A stretch of DNA of 64,000 bases from Parvularia atlantis (GCA_943704415.1 CALSCO010000113.1:1-64000); one strand, 5' to 3'. Counted from the stretch's first letter, positions 21,133 through 59,157 are shown. Notes: generated by a model from the sequence alone, not told the origin. A program made the numbers and translations.

Positions 21133-24100
21133 ATGATGACGAGCGACGCCGAGGCGTTCTCGGACCTGGAGGACGAGCCAATCTCGACCAAGGTGCGCGG
21201 CGCGGCAGCGGCATCGTCCGGCAGTTCACGGGAAGCGCGGAAACGACGCAGATCCTCAAGTCCGGCTGGCTGGTCAAGCAGGGCGGCGGGCACAAGGCGC
21301 GTGGCTGCGGCCGCACGTCAACGCAGCGCTGACGCGCGGGGCCGCTCAGAGCTGGAAGAAGCGCTGGTTCGTGCTGACAAGCAGCTACCTCAAGTACTTC
21401 AAGAGCGAACGCGTGCGCTGCGCCGTGTGACGCGTCACCTCGCTCACCTCACGCATCGTCGGCGCGCGCCGCAGGCCACCGAGGCGCCGCAGGGCATCAT
21501 CTACCTGCGCGCAGTGAGCAAGATCGAGCGCACGGACGATGGCCGCAGCGTCGGCAAGACGCCGCTCGAGGCCTTCGCCGTCAGCACACCCGAGCGCGTC
21601 TACATCATCTGCGGCCAGACAGACGCCGAGGTCACGGCCTGGATCGACGCCATCCGCGCCGCCCTGCCCAACAACGGCGTCGGCCTCCAGCCGGCTGAGA
21701 TTGTCAAGCGCGGCTACCTCACAAAGCAGGGCGGCGCGATCAAGGCGCGGCAATCGCGCATCCCACGCATCGGCTCACGCGCGCGCCGGCCACTCTCGCG
21801 CAGTCCTGGAAGCGGCGCTGGTTCGTGCTCCGCAAGGACAACCTGCTCGCGTACTACAAGGATGAGAAGGTGCGCGATCGCCTGCGCGCCGCAACGTGCC
21901 TCGGCTCACACGGCCGTTGCAGGAGTCGATCCCGCTCGGCACGGTCGACCTCGAGAAGGTGTCCGAGGTCCGGCTCGCCTCCGACAAGGTCCCAGCACAG
22001 CGGCGTGTGCGTGCGCGGATGCGCTGACGCGCCGTGCGTGCAGCTCGGCAAGGAGTTTGCATTTGAGCTCGTCACGGCCGAGCGTGTCTACGGCATCTAC
22101 GCCGCCGCGCGCGAGGAGATGGAGGAGTGGATGCACATGTTGTTGCAGATCGTCGGTGACGTCGCAGGCGAGCGTGCGTCATCCACGCGCGCGCCCCGCC
22201 TTCCCCCCGGCTGTGCACGACTGACCTCGCGACTTGGCAGCGGCCGGGACGAGCCCCGGCGGCGCCGCACGGCCCGGGCGGCAGTCGATGATCGAGGCGC
22301 TGGACGACGACGAGCAGCCGCTAACGCTCGACGAGGTCAATAGCTTCATCCGCTCCGACACGGTGCGGCGGCCGCGCTCTCGCGCGCACGCTCGCCTGAC
22401 GCGTGCCCGTGCGCGCCAGCGGATCACGAAGGAGGGCTTCCTGACCAAGCAAGGTGGCAGCATCAAGGTGCGCGCGGGCACCGCTCGCGCTCGCGTGTCT
22501 GACGCCGCACGCGCGCGCGCAGTCCTGGAAGAAGCGCTGGTTCGTGCTGCGCGAGGCCACGCTGGCGTACTACCAGGACGAGAAGGTGCGCTTTGTGCGA
22601 AGCAGCTCGTGGAAGGGGCTAACGCACACCCTTCGCGCACGCAGGAGTCGACGCCGCTCGGGCTCATCCCGCTGACGACGTGCCGCTCGTTCCAGCTCGC
22701 GTCGAAGAAGGCGCGTACTCGGTCGATGCCGCCCGCGTGACCGTAGCGCTGACGCGCGTGCATCAGGTGTCCAAGTCCAACACGTTCGAGATCACGACCG
22801 ACAGCCGCACGTACTATGTCTCGGCCGCCAACGAGGAGGACATGTGGGACTGGATCCGCGTGCTGCAGGACGCGATGACGCGCAACTCGCAGTGCGTCGG
22901 GGCGCGGTCGGTGGGCACGTGCGCGGTGAGCTGACGGCGCCGTGCAAGGGACCCCTCGGTCAACTCGGCCGAGTTGCGTGCGCTTGAGAAGGCCGCCGAA
23001 CTCGCGGCGCAGAAGAAGGCGCTGCAGCTCAAGGTGATTCGGCGCGCGGGCATCAAGAAGCTCGAGAAGCTGCAGGTGCGCCGTGCCACCCGCGTGGACG
23101 GGCAGCAACTGACGCGCAGAGCAGACGATGGTCAGGCGAGCGTCGCGCGCGTCCGACTTCAAGCGCCCGAGCAAACGCTCGAGCTCAGTGCTGCGCTCCG
23201 GCTGGGCCGCGCCGATCGTCGCGCACGAGCAGAAGCTGGCCGAGGACAAGGGTGCGCGGCAGGACTGTGCGCGCGTGGCGGAGCGCCGGTTGATCGCGTC
23301 GCAGGCACGCTCGAGGAGCAGCTGCGCGTGCTCCAGGCGCAGACGAATCAGACGGAGGAGCTGCGTGAGCAGATCCGGGTGCGTTCGCTCGCAGCGGTGT
23401 GCGCTGCTGTGCAAGGCTGAGCCCTGCGCAGGCGATGCAAAGCGAGATCGACCGCATGGCCGCGCAGCTGTCGATGGCGCAGACCAGCAGCGGCACGTTT
23501 GACAGTGCGCTCGGGGCGGCGTGTCGCCGGGGTGACACAGGCTGACGGTGCTGGCAGCGCGCTTCGTGAACGCGTCGATCGAAGACGATGACGACGAGAC
23601 GCCGATCGCCTGGGCGCGCGCCGTCAAGGACTACGTGCCGAACGGTGCGCCCGCAACGTGCCTGGGCGCGCCGCGCGTGGTGCGCCGACTCTGAGCGTGG
23701 CTGCGCCAGCGTACGACGACACCGCGCTTGTGTTCAAGGCCGGCGACATCATCGCGATCACACAGCGCAGCAGCAGCGGCCAGTACACGGGCCTGCTGGG
23801 CGGGCGCAAGGCACGCACGCCTCTCGCGAGCACGGCACGGCTTAGACGCTGACGTGCGCCGCAGGGCGTGTTCCCCTACCGGTTTGTCGAGGAGCTGGAC
23901 GCGGAGGAGGCAAAGCGCGCAAAGCAGGACTTTGCCGCCGAGGCCTCCGCGACATCGCCCGGCGGCGCCAACGGCAGAGACCCGTGGAACGTGCGTGCCT
24001 ACCGGGACGGGCCCAGGCGGCGGGCACTGACGTTGCGTGGACGTGCAGGACAAGCTCGACGACGCCGCGCGCTCGCTCTTTGCCATGTACGACAGCGACG

Positions 24101-51154: not shown

Positions 51155-53981
51155 GCACACACGCCCACAACGCGCACCTGCCATGGCCGCGGCGTGCAGG
51201 GCCTCGAGGCACTCGGTCAGCGTGTACATCGACGAGGACGTGGCGGGCGCGTGCCCGCTGCTCCGGTTGAGCGCGAGCCGGATCCACGCCTGGCACAGCA
51301 GCGAGTCGTCGCTCGGCAGGTCGAGCGACTGCAAGTACGCCGTGTCGTCCCTGATCACCCGGCGCGTCAGCACAAGCAGCGCGACGCTACTCGGCGCACT
51401 TGGGGATCATCGGCTTAAGCACGGCGTCCCAGAAGACCGCGCGCCGGGCCGCGCCGCGGAACAGCGAGAAGGCGTCCGGCGCCGTCCCAAAGCCGTGCTT
51501 GAGGCACAGCTCTATCCGCTCCGCGAGGTTCTCGACGGCTGCGCGCGCACATTGCCCGTCAGCGCCATCCGTCCGCGCACACAAGACGGCGCGCACCGGG
51601 TGTCAGTTCGCCCACCGTCACGAGCGACTTGCTGGCACGACTGGGCTCGCTGTCCGGCCCACCCGCCCGTACGGTCTTGGGGATGAGCCCGTGCAGCTTC
51701 TGCGCTCGGACGGCTCCATGAGATGCCGTGGCGCACAACGCAGCCCGCCCGCACCTGCACGGCCATCTGCAGCTCGTCGCACAGCATCTGCTTGACCTGC
51801 AGCTCGCTCACGATCGTGCGCGGGTTGCGCACGGGGTTCTGCGCGGGCCATCGCGTTGGCTGCGTGACGCGTGAGGGCCGACGGACAGTGACGCACCGGA
51901 TTGCGCTGCACCAGTGCCTGCGGCAACATGAGAGACGGGCTCTTGGCGTAGACGCTCTCCTGCGTCTTCAGCACGACGTATGCGCCATATGCCTGCTCCT
52001 CTTGGTTGATCTCGCGCAGCTCGCGGAAGCTGCGATGCGCGCGTGTGACTGCTGGTCCACGCACACGCACACAGCGCACCTTGTCAAGTCGCCCACGGCA
52101 AAGCTGAAGCGGAAGCGCCGCACGCCGTGCACTTTCACCAGCGGATCGCTCTTGAGCGGCTCGAAGTAGATGCTGTGCGCGGCGGAACGGTCAGGCGGGG
52201 CCGCGAACCGGCCGGACCGCGCACGCACCGGCTGTGCGTGAACACGAGCACGCCGCTTACGTCGCCGTACGCGCTCTGGCTCTTGACTAGCTCGCGCAGC
52301 TGCACCTGGCGTGCGGGCAGCGCATGAGCGGCTCAGCGGCGCGTGGCGAGCAACGAGACGCACGAGCGCAGTCGACGTGGACGAGCGCGAGGTCCGCGCT
52401 GGCCGTGTGGCGGGCGACGTCGCCGTTGGTAATGCGGCGCGGGGCGATGCGGGCGCGTCCTCGGGCTCGTCCGCAAAGTCGTCGTTGCCGAGCTCGTCGT
52501 CGCGCAGGTAGTCGGGCACGCGGTCCTGCACGATGAACGGCGACAGGTGGCGCTTGCCGAGCTCGTTCACCTGCCTGGCGCCCGCACCCCACAGCATGAG
52601 CGCTGGACGCACGTGCGCGCTCATTGTCATCACCTTGCCAGGTCGTCGTAGTCCTCCAGCGACGTGCACAGGAACCCAAGCAGCAGCGACGGGTCGATCT
52701 GGTTGTGGCGCAGACGCAGCGGCGCATGGTTTACCTGGAAGCTGCGTAGCTTGTCCTGCACGGCGCGTGTCAGCCGCCAGCCCTGGAACGCGCCCGCCGA
52801 CGAGACACGCACCATGCCGCACGCCTTGAGGTCGGGCAGCGGCACCATCGGCTGGGTCGTGTGCGGGTCCAGGTAGTAAAAGTGCTGCGCGTCGCTGCCG
52901 AAGAAGAACATGGCCTGGTGCGCCGTCTGGCCGTTGCGGTACCTCTGCAGGCCTGCGTCCCACAGGCGTGAGCAAGGCGCGCCGCGGCCAAGCCTCGCTC
53001 GCGCACACACGCACCGAGGTTGGACCCGATGCGCGCCGCGAGCAGGTTGCCCTGCTTGGCTCCGACAAAGCCCACAAACTGCCGCATGCGAAAGTACTCG
53101 CACATGGCTGGGATATACTCGGCGTTCAGCGTGAGGCCGAGGCGCAGCGGGATCAGGATAAGCAAGCCGCGCGCGTCGCCCGCCGCATCGACGAGCTTGG
53201 CGACCTCGGAGCGGTACACGGAGCCGTCGCGGCAGAGCAGCGCGCCCGTGTCGAACGGGTGGTGCTCCTGCATGAGCGACGCGACGACCTGCGCGCACGA
53301 CGTCGGGCTGTGCCACTGGCCGACGCTCGTCTTGTAAAACTCGCCTGTGATCGCCAGCTGGTGGATCGAGTAGGGCGCGCTCGGCGCGGGCGTGTCGTGA
53401 AACCACGAGAGCATGGTGCGGTACACGCCAAAGACCTCGGCCGCGTCGGTGTCATCGCCCATAACGAGCCCCGCCACGCTCTGCTTCATCTGCAGCAGGC
53501 GCTGCGCGTAGTGCGGCCCGAGCCGTCGCCGCAACAGCGCCTCGGCGAGCAGCATCTGCGCCGAGCGCAGGACGCAGCCCCACGACGTGTCGGCCTGACG
53601 CCGATGTCAGCGCGCACCCACGTCTGATATCGCTCTCACCGCGCGTACCGTTAGGTTCGTGTGCCCGATCGGCGCGAAGCCCGAGCGGTAGCTCAGCCAC
53701 GGCCGCTGGCCGTACTCGGTCAGGAACGCCGTCGCGGCGGCGCGCTGCGCCTCGGTCCACGCCGCGCTGCCGCCTGCGCCGCCGCTTCCGCTCCCGCCTA
53801 ATCCACCGGCACCGCCGAGCAGCGTCGACGACGCGGCCTGGAAGAGCGCGAACGCGGGCGATGCGGCCGGCGCGACGAGCGTCGTGGGTGGCGTGGCCGG
53901 CGCCACGCCCAGCAGCGCTTCAGGCGGCACGTCGGCGCAAACGCGCCCTCCCGCGAAGTGCACCGTGCTGAGCGGCACCAT
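50493..53981 (-). CDS. ATG4: Atg4 cysteine protease with a C-terminal GRAM/PH-like and RUN domain extension; start uncertain
   Basis: Atg4: WLSYRSGF, DTSWGCVLRSAQMLLA, PYSIH, LIPLRLG, YLDPH, IDPSLLLGF. Phase-consistent splicing leads on to GVLVFTHSR|IYFEPLKSDPLV (OXR1-type GRAM-like) and to RUN (IELCLKHGF, FWD, AWIRLALN, YASDALMRD...LSGLALIDF). Confidence 0.8.
51078..51150 (+). repeat. (CA)n microsatellite, about 36 units, inside an intron
   Basis: Perfect CA run. Confidence 0.97.
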
Positions 53982-54027
53982 CGACTTTCGATACTGTGAC
54001 ACCGCATTAACTGGAGGGGCACCTGAT

Positions 54028-54642
54028 ATGGCGGCGAACCTTTTGATGTCGCGCCTCGTTCGTTCTCCTCGAGCGCGGCCTCGCTGTGCACGTCGGCCAC
54101 AAGCACCCGGTGTTCCCGGCGTTGACCGCGACGGTCGCCGATCGAGCGGACGCGACGGGCGAAGCGCTCTCCGCTCAGTGCGCCGACGCCGCACCGAGCG
54201 CCGCACCGAGCGCCGCACCCAGCACCTCGGTCGTCGACGGCGGCGTGGCGTGCTCGGTCTGCGGGCAGACGTTCGTCAGCAAGTTAGGTGCAGCAATTCA
54301 CATGGGCCGCGTGCATCGTCGACCGGGTGCGGCGCCGCAGCCTGCCCGCGCAGGTCGTGTTTGCGCCTGTCGTGCAGCCTGCGCCCGCGCTGCTTAGTGC
54401 CGCCATCGAGCGCATCCGCTTCGCCGTCAAGGATACGCTGCTGCGCTTCGCTCGGCCGCAGCAGGGCAACCGCGTGCGCGAGCGTGCTGGTCGCGCGCAG
54501 CTACGCCCGCGGCATGTTCACCATGTCGTTCTGCGCAACCTGCACCTCGTCGCGCACGGTGACCGCGCCCGCACCCGTGCCCGCTGCGCCTGAGCCCGCA
54601 CCCGCCGCGCCCGCGCCCCAACCGCCTAGTGTTTCTGCATGA
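54028..54642 (+). pseudogene. Disrupted C2H2 zinc-finger ORF, probably transposon-borne
   Basis: CSVCGQTFVSKLGAAIHMGRVH in ORF 54086-54397. Coding-like text continues in other frames to TGA at 54640-54642. Confidence 0.45.
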
Positions 54643-54643
54643 A

Positions 54644-56140
54644 CTACTTGGACTTGAACACAACATGATGGACGCGGTTGGTGAGGAGGGGAGGGGGTCT
54701 GTACAGGGAGCGGTTCTCCTTCTCCATCGTCGTCAGCACGGCCGACTTGCGAAGGGAACCGCCCCCGTGTGTGGTGTGGGTAAAGTAGAACGAAGCGTGT
54801 TGATGATTCTTCTTCTCAACGGGCTCGGTTGAGAGGTGGCTCAGCGGCACACCGAGCTTGGCGCACGTGCGCAAATGGTCACCGAGATGGGCGATCAGGG
54901 CATGGAGGTACGGTGTCACCGGCACAGGCGCGCCGGCGATGACTTTGTCCGTGTCCTCCATGCGGGCGGGAGCATCTTGGTCAACAGCCGGCATGGGCTG
55001 ACCGAAGACGAGATCAACGACGTGGAGGTGTGTGCACATTCGCGCATGCGGCTGAGCGCGTGCCTCACCCGTGCGCTGCATCAGAACTCTGCACGTGCCT
55101 TCCTGCGCGGCCTCGCGACGTCGGGCAGTGACCCTGGCCGCCCGTACGCGCGCGAATTGGGACACGTTCATCGTCGTTTATGACGCGGCCAAGTCCAGCT
55201 TCTGCAGCAGCGCGTACTTGGCCGGCCGGCGCAGGCTCGTCCAGTTCAGAGATCCTGTGAGACGTCAGTGCACGTGCGCGTGAATGCGTGAGCGCACCGG
55301 ACGCCGTGCCCGTCGCCTCGTCACGCGACGCCCAAAAGTTGATGGTCACACCGACATCGGCAGCGGCGGTGGTGAGGGCGGCAACTGCGGTCGCGTGGCA
55401 TGTGCGCGAACGCGTGGCGGACATGGTTGTAGTCCTTGCCGCACGCGAGCAGGGCGACGGGCAGCTGCGCGTCGGGCGTGCGGTTCATGTCGGTCCCGGT
55501 CACGATCGCGACAGTGACCATCGTGTGGGTGACCGAGCCCACGCGGCGGCCGTCGCCCGAAAACTACCCGGCGAGGTATGAGTGCACGCACAGGTCATGC
55601 GCGCGCGCACTTTCAGCAGGGGGCGCGTCGGCTTGGGTACCATGCCCCGCAGCACGTGCGTCAGCAACGGGCGCAGCGGGCGGCGCCAGGCGTCGTTTAG
55701 GCCCTCCACGCGCTATATCGGCACCGCGCGCCATCTCCTCCGTCTCGCCGCTTGCGCTCCTCGGCCACTGCGTCGCACGCGATGTTCAGCAGCGAGCAGA
55801 GTGCCGCACGCTTGTGCACCCCGATACTCGCGCGCCATTTCAGGCGTGAGCGCGGCCAGGGCGCGGTACGCGTCGCGGCTGCAGCCTGTGCTGTCCAGCA
55901 CGTGGACGGCCTTGGCGAGGCGGGCACGGGCCTCCTTGTTCTGCAAGCGTGTCTCAGAGACCAGCGCGACCAGAGCGCGCGCACGCACCGGCATGTCGTT
56001 CGGGCCAAGCGAGTGGTCGTCGTCGAACGTCATGCGCACGCGCTCGCCGGCAAAGTTGGCGTCGATGCCCAGCAGCGTGGCGTCGTCCACGGCATTGCGC
56101 TTGCAGGACTCGTTGAATGCCGCACGTGCGTCGCTGGTCA
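54644..56140 (-). pseudogene. Degenerate RAG1/Transib-like DDE transposase
   Basis: Fragments across frames: LDSTGCSRDAYRALAAL, FSGDGRRVG...MVTVAIV (first Asp), INFW, NWTSL...LLQKL, and VTPYLHALIAHL...LSTEPVEKKNH...TTHGG (resembles RAG1 TNYFHKTLAH...SEGNE). Has in-frame stops, frameshifts and an apparent deletion of the central Asp/CxxC region. Confidence 0.6.
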
Positions 56141-56945
56141 CAGAGCGCCGCACGCCCCACACGTCTTGGACGTGTACTCCTCCGTGCATGTAATCACCTC
56201 ACACCGCGGGTGCTCGCGCGACTTGTGTAGCAGCAGCATCCAAAACGTGTAGTGGGAGAGCGTGAGCAGGCGCCGCGCCGTCTTGCTCCGGATCCGCCGC
56301 GCCCCGCGCCGGACCATCTGCTGCGTCTCGAACCGCGGCAGCAGCACCACGCGGTAGTTGCGGCACAGCCACAGGGCCAGCTTGCGGTGCATCTCGTCGA
56401 CCAGGTTGCGAATCCGCTGCAGAAGGCGCCGGCCCGCGCGACGCAGTCGGTACCGCCGCCGCTTGCGCGTCTCGCGCGCATCCATCTTGCCCTGCAACTT
56501 GTCGTACGCGCGGCACAGACGGTACACCCGCCCGATGTCGCCTGGCCCCACTCGACCACGCGCCCGTCCGCGTCGTAGCCCGTCATGAACGTGCGCACGC
56601 CCAGGTCCAGCGCAATCACGCCGTGCAGTCGGCCCGGAAGACCAGCGGTTGCGGCATGCACAGGTACTGTGCGCACCAACCGCGCGTCGCACGCCTTCTT
56701 CTGGCCGTGGCTGGGGAAGACGCGCAGCTTGAGCGTCTTGAGCGGCTGCGCAGCCTCGTCCACGTCGTCGTCAGGGTTCGGCTCGTCCGCGTGCGGCTCA
56801 GACGGCGTTGTCGGCGTCTTCTTGGTGCGGCGACGCTTCTTGTGCGGCGGCTGTTGCGTCTGCACGGCGGCGGCGGCGTGGCCGTTCTGGCGCGCCACAG
56901 AGTGCGTGACGACGGCGAGGAGGTCGTGCAGTGCGTGGATGGGAC
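56138..56945 (-). pseudogene. IS607-derived Fanzor2/TnpB nuclease remnant preceded by the C-terminus of a serine-recombinase TnpA
   Basis: DLLAVVTHSVARQNG (IS607 TnpA C-terminal helix), KTLKLRVFP, RuvC-I ALDLGVRTFMTGYD, bridge helix RIRNLVDEMHRKLALWLC, LPRFETQQMV, LSHYTF, TEEYTSKTCGACG. Frameshift at about 56545. Truncated before RuvC-III. Confidence 0.88.
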
Positions 56946-57031
56946 TGGCTGTTTGCCGGCTGCGAGGGCCCGGCGGGCACGCTTACATAGGGCGGCCGGA
57001 AGTTGGATGCGCTAACGTCAGCGGGAACACT

Positions 57032-59157
57032 CTAAATGATCACTTCAAGGGTGTGCGGTCGCGGAGGCGAGGGCCGGGTCGGTCGGGGGCACGGCCGCGG
57101 GCAGCGCAGACAGGTCGATCTTGGTCGAGTGGTACTTGGCGGGCGGCAGCTCGTGGTGCAGGCTGCGCCAGACGCGGTGCCGCACCTGCGAGCGCGGTCA
57201 GCTTGTCTCGCGCGCAACTGAGCGCGCACCGTGAACACGATCGCGAGGGCGACGGCAAAGGCGCACATGGCCACGGTGATTATGAACGCCTGCCGGTAGC
57301 ACCCGTTGCCCTGCCACAACGGTCAGGACGCACGACAACGAGCACAAAGGACACGCACCGCGCAGAGCGTGCCGTCGCCCGGCGAGTGGCTGTCGTAGAT
57401 GTACCCAAAGATGAGGTTCGTGATCGGCCCGGCAACCGCGGGCGCGAGGAGCATGCTGCCCCTGTCGGTGCGCAGCGAGTCAGCGGGGGGCCAGCTGCAG
57501 CGACTGCGGCTGCGCACGCACCAGTTGGAGCCGAACGAGCGTGTGCCGAAGAGGTCACCCACGAGCGTCGGGATGAGGCAGAAGGTGCTGCCGTAGGCGA
57601 CGCCGACGAGCACTGTGACCGCGTACAGTTGCTGCACGTCGCTGGTCTGGAGCGTGTGTGAGCGCGCACACCGGTTAAACAAAGCGCCGCACACCGTCAG
57701 CGCAACGATCTGTGCGATCGTCATGAGCGACGACACGCCGATGAGGAACGCGCGCCGCGACAGGTGGAAGTCGCGCAGGTACCAGTCCGACACGACGCCC
57801 ATGATCAGGCGCCCGGCGAAGTTGCTCGCCGACAGCACGGACGCGTGCGTCGAGATGAGCACGCTGATGTCTGCGCGGCGTTCGTCACGGGCCGATTGCA
57901 CAGTCGCGGCCGCTGCGCGCACCCTCGGCCGTGTACGAGCCCGCCTGTGTCGCCAGCGACTTGATGACCGCGCTCAGGTTGTTAATGTACATCAGGCCAG
58001 ACGACGCCGACATGAACAGGACCAGGAACAGCAGCCAGTAGTCGGGTTGCTGCGGCGCGCGCGGCCTGAGCTGAACGCCGCTGCGGCCACCGAGCACGAG
58101 CGCACCCTGGCAAGCGCGAGCCCGTTGTAGTCGTGCTTCGAGTGCTGCGGCTCGTGGCGCGCGAGCACCGCGTCCTTCTTGAGGTCGGCGTGCGAGACGT
58201 CGGGCGGGCTGACGATGAGCGACTCCTGCGGCAACACGTCAGTTTCGCATCATGCAAACACGTGTTGTGCCGCGCGCGCACCCGCCGGATGTTGCGCGCC
58301 GCGGGCGAGTCGTGGTTGACTGCGAGATTGGTGAAGTGCGCGTGGATAAAGTCGGCCGAGTCGTGCAGGAGGAAGAGCGAGAGGAAGAATACGCCCGCGC
58401 CGCTGATCGCAATCATCTCGATGAACTGCGCCAGCTGCGCACTCGCGGCGCCGTTCGTGACGAACGCGTGCACGTAGATCTGCGCGCGTGTGAGCTCTCG
58501 TTGCGCGCGAGAAATACGGGCGGGTGGCGCGCGCCTGCGAGAAGACGAGCGTCGACAGGCCGAAGAGCGCCACGTGCACGCCCACGATCAGCCCGCGGCT
58601 GCTGTCGGAGAAGTTGCGAATGTTGACGGCGAGCGGGGCGCTGTCTGCACGGCGATCAGCGGCGCCACGTGGGCGCGTCCGGACGGAGCGGACGCACAGG
58701 CCGGCGCGCCGCCGATGCCCACGAGCACGTAGAAGAACGTCATGAGGCCGTAGTTGGTCGTGGCCAGGCGGCCCGCGAGCATCGCCGAGACGAGGCCGTA
58801 CGCGAGCGGCTGGATGACGAGTGCGGCGAGCATGGCCGGGATGTGTCCGCGCTTGTCAACGACGTAGCCGAAGCCCCACTGTGCGAGGTACGCGGCTGAC
58901 TGCGGCGGGACGGCGCATCAGTCGGCTGCAAGAGCGCAGCGTAGGCTCCACGACTGACTCGCCTGCCCGAGTGTGGCAATGAGCGAGAGCTCCTGCTGTC
59001 TGTAGCCAAGCTGCACGCCCATCGCAGCCATGTACGTGCCGAAGAGGTAGATCGTGCCGCCGTAGAGCATGCACAGCAGGCCGATGGCGACCGACGCGCC
59101 CTTGCGCACGGCCGCGGGCACGCGCGGCGCACGCACGTGCACGTGCGGATGCTCCAT
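57032..59157 (-). CDS. MFS transporter, nodulin-like/Mch1 (OFA-type) family
   Basis: GGTIYLFGTY, GYVVDKRG, NIRNFSDSSRGLIVG..VALFGLS, GLMYINNL, NFAGRLIMGVVSD, LVGDLFGTRSFGSNW, FGYIYD, GNGCY. Many TM segments. Confidence 0.88.

Follow-up and report, generated by a model that had tools for sequence, protein, structure and literature searches.

A very probable remnant of an IS607-Fanzor2 element behind a transporter gene of Parvularia atlantis

Described IS607-Fanzor2 elements and the locus compared with them

Elements of the IS607 type that carry a Fanzor2 nuclease are recorded from amoebae, choanoflagellates, fungi, molluscs and giant viruses in the accounts of PMC3627910 (Bao and Jurka 2013) and PMC10432273. 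In those of eukaryotes and giant viruses, as portrayed in PMC3627910 and, for ApmFz2, in PMC11832414, the tail of the transposase TnpA lies upstream of the nuclease, the Glu of the active site is shifted, the residue at the canonical place is inert and a basic patch is present in the thumb. According to PMC10530073, Fanzors have Pro or Gly at the canonical RuvC-II Glu, and the definition used in PMC10711439 combines DPG in RuvC-I with the shifted Glu. Judged from intact relatives and this literature, TnpA would have inserted such an element by serine recombination, with neither inverted repeats nor a duplication of the target. Fanzor2, whose reading would start inside the TnpA gene in the +1 frame, would have taken up an omega-RNA supplied by the right end and cleaved empty target sites next to its TAM.

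The DNA analysed here, called the window below, is a stretch of 64,000 nucleotides from Parvularia atlantis (GCA_943704415.1 CALSCO010000113.1:1-64000); it has a GC content of 0.70 and is eukaryotic DNA with short introns. On its minus strand, between a transporter gene of the MFS type (weakly matched in Pfam and with spliced joints in X2, a public run) and a peptidase C54 gene of the ATG4 type (E 7e-36), lies what is very probably a decayed IS607-type element, composed of TnpA and an overlapping Fanzor2; the larger part of each gene is gone, and the element is likely inactive. The upstream TnpA tail, the shifted Glu, the inert canonical residue and the thumb patch are common to this remnant and the IS607 Fanzor2 elements of PMC3627910 and PMC11832414. 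Compared with those accounts, most of TnpA, the N-terminal domain, REC, the second CxxC, RuvC-III and the omega-RNA end have been lost, and the remnant differs further by four frame-shifting breaks, by DLG in place of DPG and by a host that is probably a nucleariid. The cyanobacterial IS607 TnpBs presented in PMC10711439 as pro-Fanzors have the same active-site layout and IS607 TnpA partner, but they form a separate group in the tree described below and the remnant, unlike them, is embedded among intron-bearing eukaryotic genes.

A literature search found no report of Fanzor in nucleariids (Parvularia, Nuclearia, Fonticula) among the papers listed, and none of four host names occurred in the supplements of the Fanzor papers searched, in which tables with accession numbers only would not show the host. 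The remnant probably adds the nucleariids, the nearest amoeboid relatives of fungi, to the hosts of IS607-Fanzor2. No tool can be drawn from the copy itself; the by-products of use are the intact-looking close relatives P0003 and P0038 and the loci L080-L159. Elsewhere in the window, three diverged repeats at 21250-22564 (families D12 and D18) resemble tandem exons that may encode PH domains.

The nuclease core, the TnpA tail and their kin

The bridge helix, RuvC-II and the first CxxC (56161-56150) were found at 56148..56545 on the minus strand, where a profile search of the window gave an iE of 1.2e-67. The RuvC-I block precedes them at 56546..56625 on the same strand (iE 4.8e-12); its Asp codon is kept and a 1-nt frameshift lies at its end. 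When a 136-aa piece from 56141-56548 was searched against proteins of 239 aa or more, 277 were matched at E<=0.001, the top one with 71% identity over the whole length of the piece. In the PDB, the best solved relative of this piece was the mimivirus Fanzor2 (9B0L, ApmFz2; E 1.4e-9), which was found together with one chance chain and was the only TnpB-family chain at E<=1. The NCBIfam model guided_TnpB (NF040570) also placed the remnant with TnpB/Fanzor (E 3.9e-9), but the scores stayed below the curated cut-offs, with 36.3 bits against 100 for NF040570 and 18.7 bits against 26.3 for PF07282. The N-terminal piece alone gave no match in PDB and NCBIfam searches.

The three residues picked out in the sequence-only reading were all found in their places, namely the Asp of ALDLG (56607-56605), the Pro of VVLLPRFET (56338-56336) and the first Glu of TEEYTSK (56182-56180). 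The Glu stands seven residues before the first CxxC, in an ExxxxxxCxxC pattern (EEYTSKTCGAC) that was aligned with the ApmFz2 motif, and the Pro was invariant in 18/18 rows of alignment A1 and aligned with the canonical Glu of a TnpB-type chain. The claim that this is the active site known for Fanzors holds for the Pro at the canonical site and for the shifted Glu, but not for RuvC-I, which reads DLG and so departs from the fingerprint of PMC10711439, whereas 290 of the 291 parsed relatives have DPG (under a pattern that allowed only P, L or I). As the DLG and DPG codons are one base apart, the DLG of the remnant is likely a DPG decayed by that base. RuvC-III and the second CxxC, noted earlier as missing, were indeed absent from the whole 64-kb window, in which a C-terminal profile of 96 proteins found nothing better than iE 0.68.

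Upstream of the nuclease, 56881..56925 (minus strand) encodes DLLAVVTHSVARQNG, the tail of the IS607 serine recombinase TnpA; 13/15 of its residues are those of P0089, and it was the best match to a TnpA profile in the window (iE 3.7e-5). Only this 15-codon tail is left of TnpA, which is whole in the relatives. At the DNA level it was 79% identical to L119-L121 over 61 nt, in a match collinear with that of the nuclease. In the +1 frame 56925-56881 reads TSSPSSRTLWRART, the overlapping N-terminal domain of Fanzor2, and relatives match both frames. A TnpA match near the nuclease was found within the fetched flanks of 57/79 viral and 55/80 metagenome loci. In 64 of the 72 loci with a complete TnpA match, drawn from L001-L159, the nuclease frame was open through the TnpA tail in the +1 frame (median overlap 539 nt in loci with complete TnpA, stop-to-tail), and of the motif-parsed loci 37/38 showed the +1 offset and 0/38 a fusion. 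No report of overlapping TnpA and Fanzor reading frames was found in a literature search. Because TnpA regularly overlaps the Fanzor2 N-terminal domain in two frames, automatic gene calls can truncate Fanzor2 nucleases.

This layout bears on the continuous frame that had been read from DLLAVVTHSVARQNG into the nuclease. The tail is genuine at 56925-56881 and the frame is a single open one, but the join is a lesion, since the two genes overlap in different frames in the relatives. Past the NG motif, the relatives have R-R-S-A-A-N-R-K-R-R-R-like tails, and the remnant has an arginine run in frame 2, the basic tail of TnpA, which ends at a stop at 56800-56798; from the relatives' tails, about 16 nt would have been lost right after the motif (break 1, 56798..56880, minus strand). 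GC at third positions was 0.90 in frame 0 versus 0.73 and 0.49 in the other frames, a value that fits frame 0 as the coding frame of the nuclease. By this comparison, the in-frame join appears as the product of a deletion through which the nuclease frame slipped into that of TnpA.

The basic patch HKKRRRTKK (56844-56818) and the linker up to LRVFP occupy 56715..56844 on the minus strand, and by position they are the thumb and first WED strand of Fanzor2. In the description of ApmFz2 in PMC11832414, the NLS comprises residues 1-53 and the basic thumb residues 109-130; the equivalent patch of P0037, just ahead of an LRVFP-like strand, was aligned to ApmFz2 residues 106-130. The patch, earlier described as NLS-like, is present, but its aligned position makes it the thumb and not the ApmFz2 NLS, and the segment equal to that NLS is deleted in the remnant. 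As most predicted N-terminal NLSs of Fanzors are functional in the account of PMC10530073, nuclear import by such a patch is conceivable.

The probable left-end or upstream region of the IS607 element lies at 56960..57043 (minus strand), just past the stop that ends the host MFS gene. P0124, which belongs to the cluster of the close relative P0089, has an upstream extension whose best match among 6390 window tiles lay at 56995-56972; the match was first noticed by eye, and its score, judged post hoc, was equalled in 3/5000 shuffles and 5/3000 random window pieces. On this match, the element probably starts shortly behind the MFS stop and reaches up to about 57000, and most of TnpA was probably deleted between about 56960 and 56926. 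A DNA-level search for the left end gave a single 14-nt match (E 0.28 among loci), which was rejected as chance.

Fusions of this kind were also seen among the relatives. P0089 has the same TnpA tail as the remnant, yet it is a separate deletion product in which a whole TnpA is fused to the C-terminus of the nuclease. P0089/P0124 and P0076 are natural in-frame fusions of TnpA with a partial Fanzor2, each without part of the nuclease, and deletion fusions thus recur in the IS607-Fanzor2 family.

For the phylogeny, 292 parsed sequences were thinned at 72% identity and a quick IQ-TREE run was made with 141 rows and 160 columns, P0065, P0076 and P0089 being left out for absence of a bounding motif and Fanzor1 not being among the rows. 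The remnant paired with the metagenome protein P0003 (support 97) inside a group of 99 rows (SH-aLRT 95) that held 7/7 of the named eukaryote proteins, and six of the seven prokaryotic rows, all cyanobacterial, formed a separate group outside it (support 97). In this tree 63/138 inner branches are open and 85/99 of the neighbours in the group are unlabelled metagenome proteins; L160, a prokaryote-labelled locus on a 2.1-kb contig of a metagenome bin, also fell inside the eukaryote-rich group. By sequence, then, the remnant groups with protist and fungal Fanzor2s, apart from the cyanobacterial pro-Fanzors.

Identity was 72% to P0003 in the RuvC block, 63% to P0038 and, over the stretch retained by P0089, 83% to that protein. 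Akin to the remnant in public sets are the Fanzor2-like proteins of Phalansterium (P0038), Mycamoeba (P0037), Lipomyces and Balamuthia; RuvC-III and both CxxC pairs are present in P0003 and P0038, unlike in the remnant. Assignment to Fanzor2 rather than Fanzor1 follows from TnpA, from the match to 9B0L and from the description in PMC3627910. The profiles, the 277 proteins, 9B0L, NF040570, the TnpA match and the tree all support the family call of the sequence-only reading, an IS607-Fanzor2 remnant with a rearranged RuvC and a TnpA tail. Two intact-looking Fanzor2 proteins near the remnant in the tree, P0038 and P0125, are labelled Phalansterium solitarium, a name absent from the supplements of the Fanzor papers searched.

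Copy number was judged from contigs of public runs at 80% likeness or more, which cannot prove absence. The nuclease body was mostly covered by a single X1 contig, and among the contigs listed there was no second one with at least 80% likeness over it, save short chance-like pieces. Nor was an intact sibling or other full-length copy seen among the best 120 of the 277 protein matches or in contigs at 80% likeness. The shares of runs X3, X4 and X5 were small (0.09-0.15), with short pieces below 95% likeness in X4 and a few short exact pieces in X3 and X5. One 206-nt X1 contig matched 56867-56914 (4 differences) and about 56929-56959, some 79 nt, and departed from the window on both sides, which suggests that the TnpA-tail region, at the least, is probably present a second time.

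This contig is one point in favour of the reading that the window copy is dead while the genome still contains an unbroken IS607-Fanzor2 of this family at another site; the other is that the decay is not ancient, as follows from the 72% identity to P0003 in the RuvC block and from the GC3 of 0.90. Against it stand the lack of a second X1 contig over the nuclease body among those listed and of any host-labelled protein (239 aa or more) among the best 120 of the 277 matches, and we consider such a survivor unlikely. The proposal that the lineage could be a source of new nucleases was thus not borne out by the proteins and contigs compared; past activity of a Fanzor2 family in it is judged from the remnant and the roughly 79 nt matched by the 206-nt contig. 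A search of viral contigs for close relatives, made with the nuclease piece of the window, gave 9 pattern matches with 0 confirmed, and the viral-contig searches with nuclease and transposase gave no sign of a viral insertion.

The junction with a transposase of putative RAG1/Transib likeness

The 3' side of the remnant is joined to a neighbouring transposase at 56145..56148 (minus strand). X1 and X2 contigs match 56072/56082-56147 with 3 differences and then leave the window for other DNA that continues the transposase frame. Because they continue that frame beyond 56147, the Fanzor DNA ends at 56148, one codon past the first CxxC. The TGA at 56138 belongs to the transposase, read out of frame, and the lower bound of 56138 given in the sequence-only reading has to be corrected, as it takes in 10 nt of a different transposon. 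Transposase DNA directly adjoins 56148, and the Fanzor right end and the omega-RNA, already noted as missing, are gone: nhmmer with the 3' segments of 35 relatives (no positive control) gave 0 matches at E<=10, and Rfam gave 0 at E<=1 over 53500-57600.

The neighbour, at 54647..56147 on the minus strand, belongs to a repeated DDE transposase family that weakly resembles RAG1/Transib. This copy is broken and lacks its 5' part; its stop lies at 54649-54647, and its outer end was not found. Its C-terminal piece was 63% identical to P0123 over 61% of the piece (E 2e-33), and divergent copies occur in X1 and X2 contigs, several of which cover the transposase. Relatives are few, with 4 proteins at E<=0.001; the longer members P0123 and P0163 are in EukProt. 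The only match of the transposase piece carries the EukProt label Parvularia atlantis, and it is from this one gene family that the host was judged to be probably a nucleariid. No Pfam match was obtained, and in viral contigs there were 11 pattern matches with 0 confirmed. Likeness to RAG1 was seen as an Atlas score of 0.95 to RAG1 clusters, as a weak profile match to the RAG1L chain 6B40 (E 0.0038) and in a Foldseek search in which all rows to rank 29 were RAG/Transib, but at E>=0.0049 and on a model of pLDDT 54; the single-sequence fold of P0123 (pLDDT 36.7) was unusable. The likeness to RAG1/Transib is therefore weak but consistent across three lines. RAG-like elements have been described from a protist (PMC10629977), and this family, with few database relatives, may deserve its own study.

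Two further features were observed near the transposase. At 54047-54640 on the plus strand, a C2H2-zinc-finger-like frame (weak, E 0.013) lies tail to tail with the transposase and overlaps repeated DNA; this frame could be the element's second gene. The segments 54408-54480 and 54070-54118 were matched by many X1 contigs with differing flanks, with a summed depth of up to 12,500 compared to about 227 nearby, and are possibly a small high-copy repeat or a transposon end. Within the transposase, X1, X2 and X5 contigs switch strand at 54963-55361, which suggests an internal inversion in the window copy or in other transposase copies.

The two parts adjoin directly on the same strand with no spacer, as would be expected if a RAG1/Transib-like cut-and-paste transposon had captured an IS607 Fanzor2 and the window held a deleted copy of the composite. 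Such uptake by cut-and-paste transposons is described in PMC10711439 as Fanzor2* in the alga Chloropicon and in molluscs, where Fanzor2 also stands directly beside a DDE transposase. Unlike in those cases, no shared inverted repeats or target duplication were found here, and the mid-gene joint was seen in the window copy only. No terminal inverted repeat pair enclosing both parts occurred among the 25 longest of 217 pairs. The joint lies mid-frame in both genes, other transposase copies proceed at 56147 or 56121 into their own sequence without Fanzor DNA, the nuclease body is mostly one X1 contig compared with several divergent ones for the transposase, and the remnant still carries a TnpA tail and what is probably the IS607 upstream region. 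Capture is on this evidence very improbable; if true, a capture by such a transposon in a nucleariid would add one more independent stage to the route that has been proposed to lead from Fanzor2 to Fanzor1.

As the joint falls inside a gene on either side and is missing from other transposase copies, it is most simply explained by a local deletion. The decayed IS607 element would have lain upstream of the RAG1/Transib-like transposon, or have been interrupted by it, and a deletion would then have taken the Fanzor 3' end, the omega-RNA and the 5' part of the neighbour; this order of events at the joint is inferred only.

Lesions, transcription and origin

The remnant has five internal breaks (a REC deletion of roughly 128 codons and four frame-shifting lesions), which were located by the spacing of landmarks compared to relatives and by tblastn of the best 120 of the 277 protein matches. 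In addition to break 1 behind the TnpA tail, the joint of the deletion of the REC lobe and part of WED lies at 56688..56714 (break 2, minus strand), where about 128 codons are gone between LRVFP and CDAR: 9 residues separate these landmarks in the remnant versus a median of 137 (range 128-159) in 36 relatives, and the deletion suspected between LRVFP and CDARLVRT is real. The WED remnant at 56608..56691 (minus strand) contains breaks 3 and 4, by which YLCMPQPL (56666-56628) is put into the third frame, and homologues match there in another frame. About 14 nt are missing before YLC (break 3; 28 nt versus 42, n=44) and about 22 nt before RuvC-I (break 4; 53 nt versus a median of 75 nt, n=63). 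Break 5 is a 1-nt loss near 56548-56545, with an Asp-to-Glu distance of 425 nt compared to a median of 142 codons (n=125). The motifs thus do not share a single reading frame, RuvC-I and RuvC-II being separated by this 1-nt loss and the WED strand lying in the third frame; the four frame-shifting breaks had gone unnoticed in the sequence-only reading. A methylation-driven decay was not supported, CpG observed/expected being 1.30 for the nuclease core as for the window as a whole.

One X1 contig matched 56072-57600 and X2 contigs matched 56072-56469 and 56671-57180, all with 0 differences. X1 is possibly the sample behind the window, so that these contigs argue against a long-read slip yet are not fully independent; for the breaks at 56688-56545, the stretch from 56670 down to 56470 is covered by X1 only. 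Part of this coverage is of the RNA type. One spliced X2 contig, from the MFS gene, reaches down to 56671, another X2 contig covers 56072-56469, X2 RNA-type contigs also cover 56671-57150, and X5 covers 56814-56986; 56470-56670 is without X2 cover and uninformative on expression. Contigs tell neither strand nor level of transcription, and the RNA cover of the remnant is likely read-through from the MFS gene. Today the DNA would at most be transcribed passively, as a 3' extension of the MFS transcript, and would yield no working protein.

The RNA-type contigs, the single open frame common to the TnpA tail and the nuclease start, and the example of P0089 as a natural TnpA-Fanzor deletion fusion could instead be taken to mean that the breaks are assembly errors or introns and that the gene yields a short protein, functional or domesticated, such as a TnpA-tail/Fanzor fusion. 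An intron reading fails because every break removes sequence, and assembly errors are opposed by the contigs without differences from the window. Moreover, the open frame has no ATG ahead of the TnpA tail in 56982-56926, REC, RuvC-III and the omega-RNA end are absent, and the 5' RNA cover is the tail of the spliced MFS contig, all of which makes this alternative highly improbable.

A bacterial TnpB (pro-Fanzor or of the D-phi-G/shifted-Glu group) brought in by recent transfer or contamination would have DLG in RuvC-I, as ordinary TnpB has in PMC10711439, but it is hardly credible for a remnant that shares one contig with intron-bearing host genes, has a GC of 0.69 versus 0.70 in the host, stands apart from the cyanobacterial rows of the tree and is 72% identical to P0003, compared to 45-55% for the best prokaryote-genome loci (on short binned contigs) and about 35-43% for most cyanobacterial ones. 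Four loci, L160, L161, L175 and L187, lie on 2-3.5 kb contigs of bacterial bins and are more like a eukaryote-type query than most cyanobacterial nucleases are; they are possibly mis-binned eukaryotic DNA.
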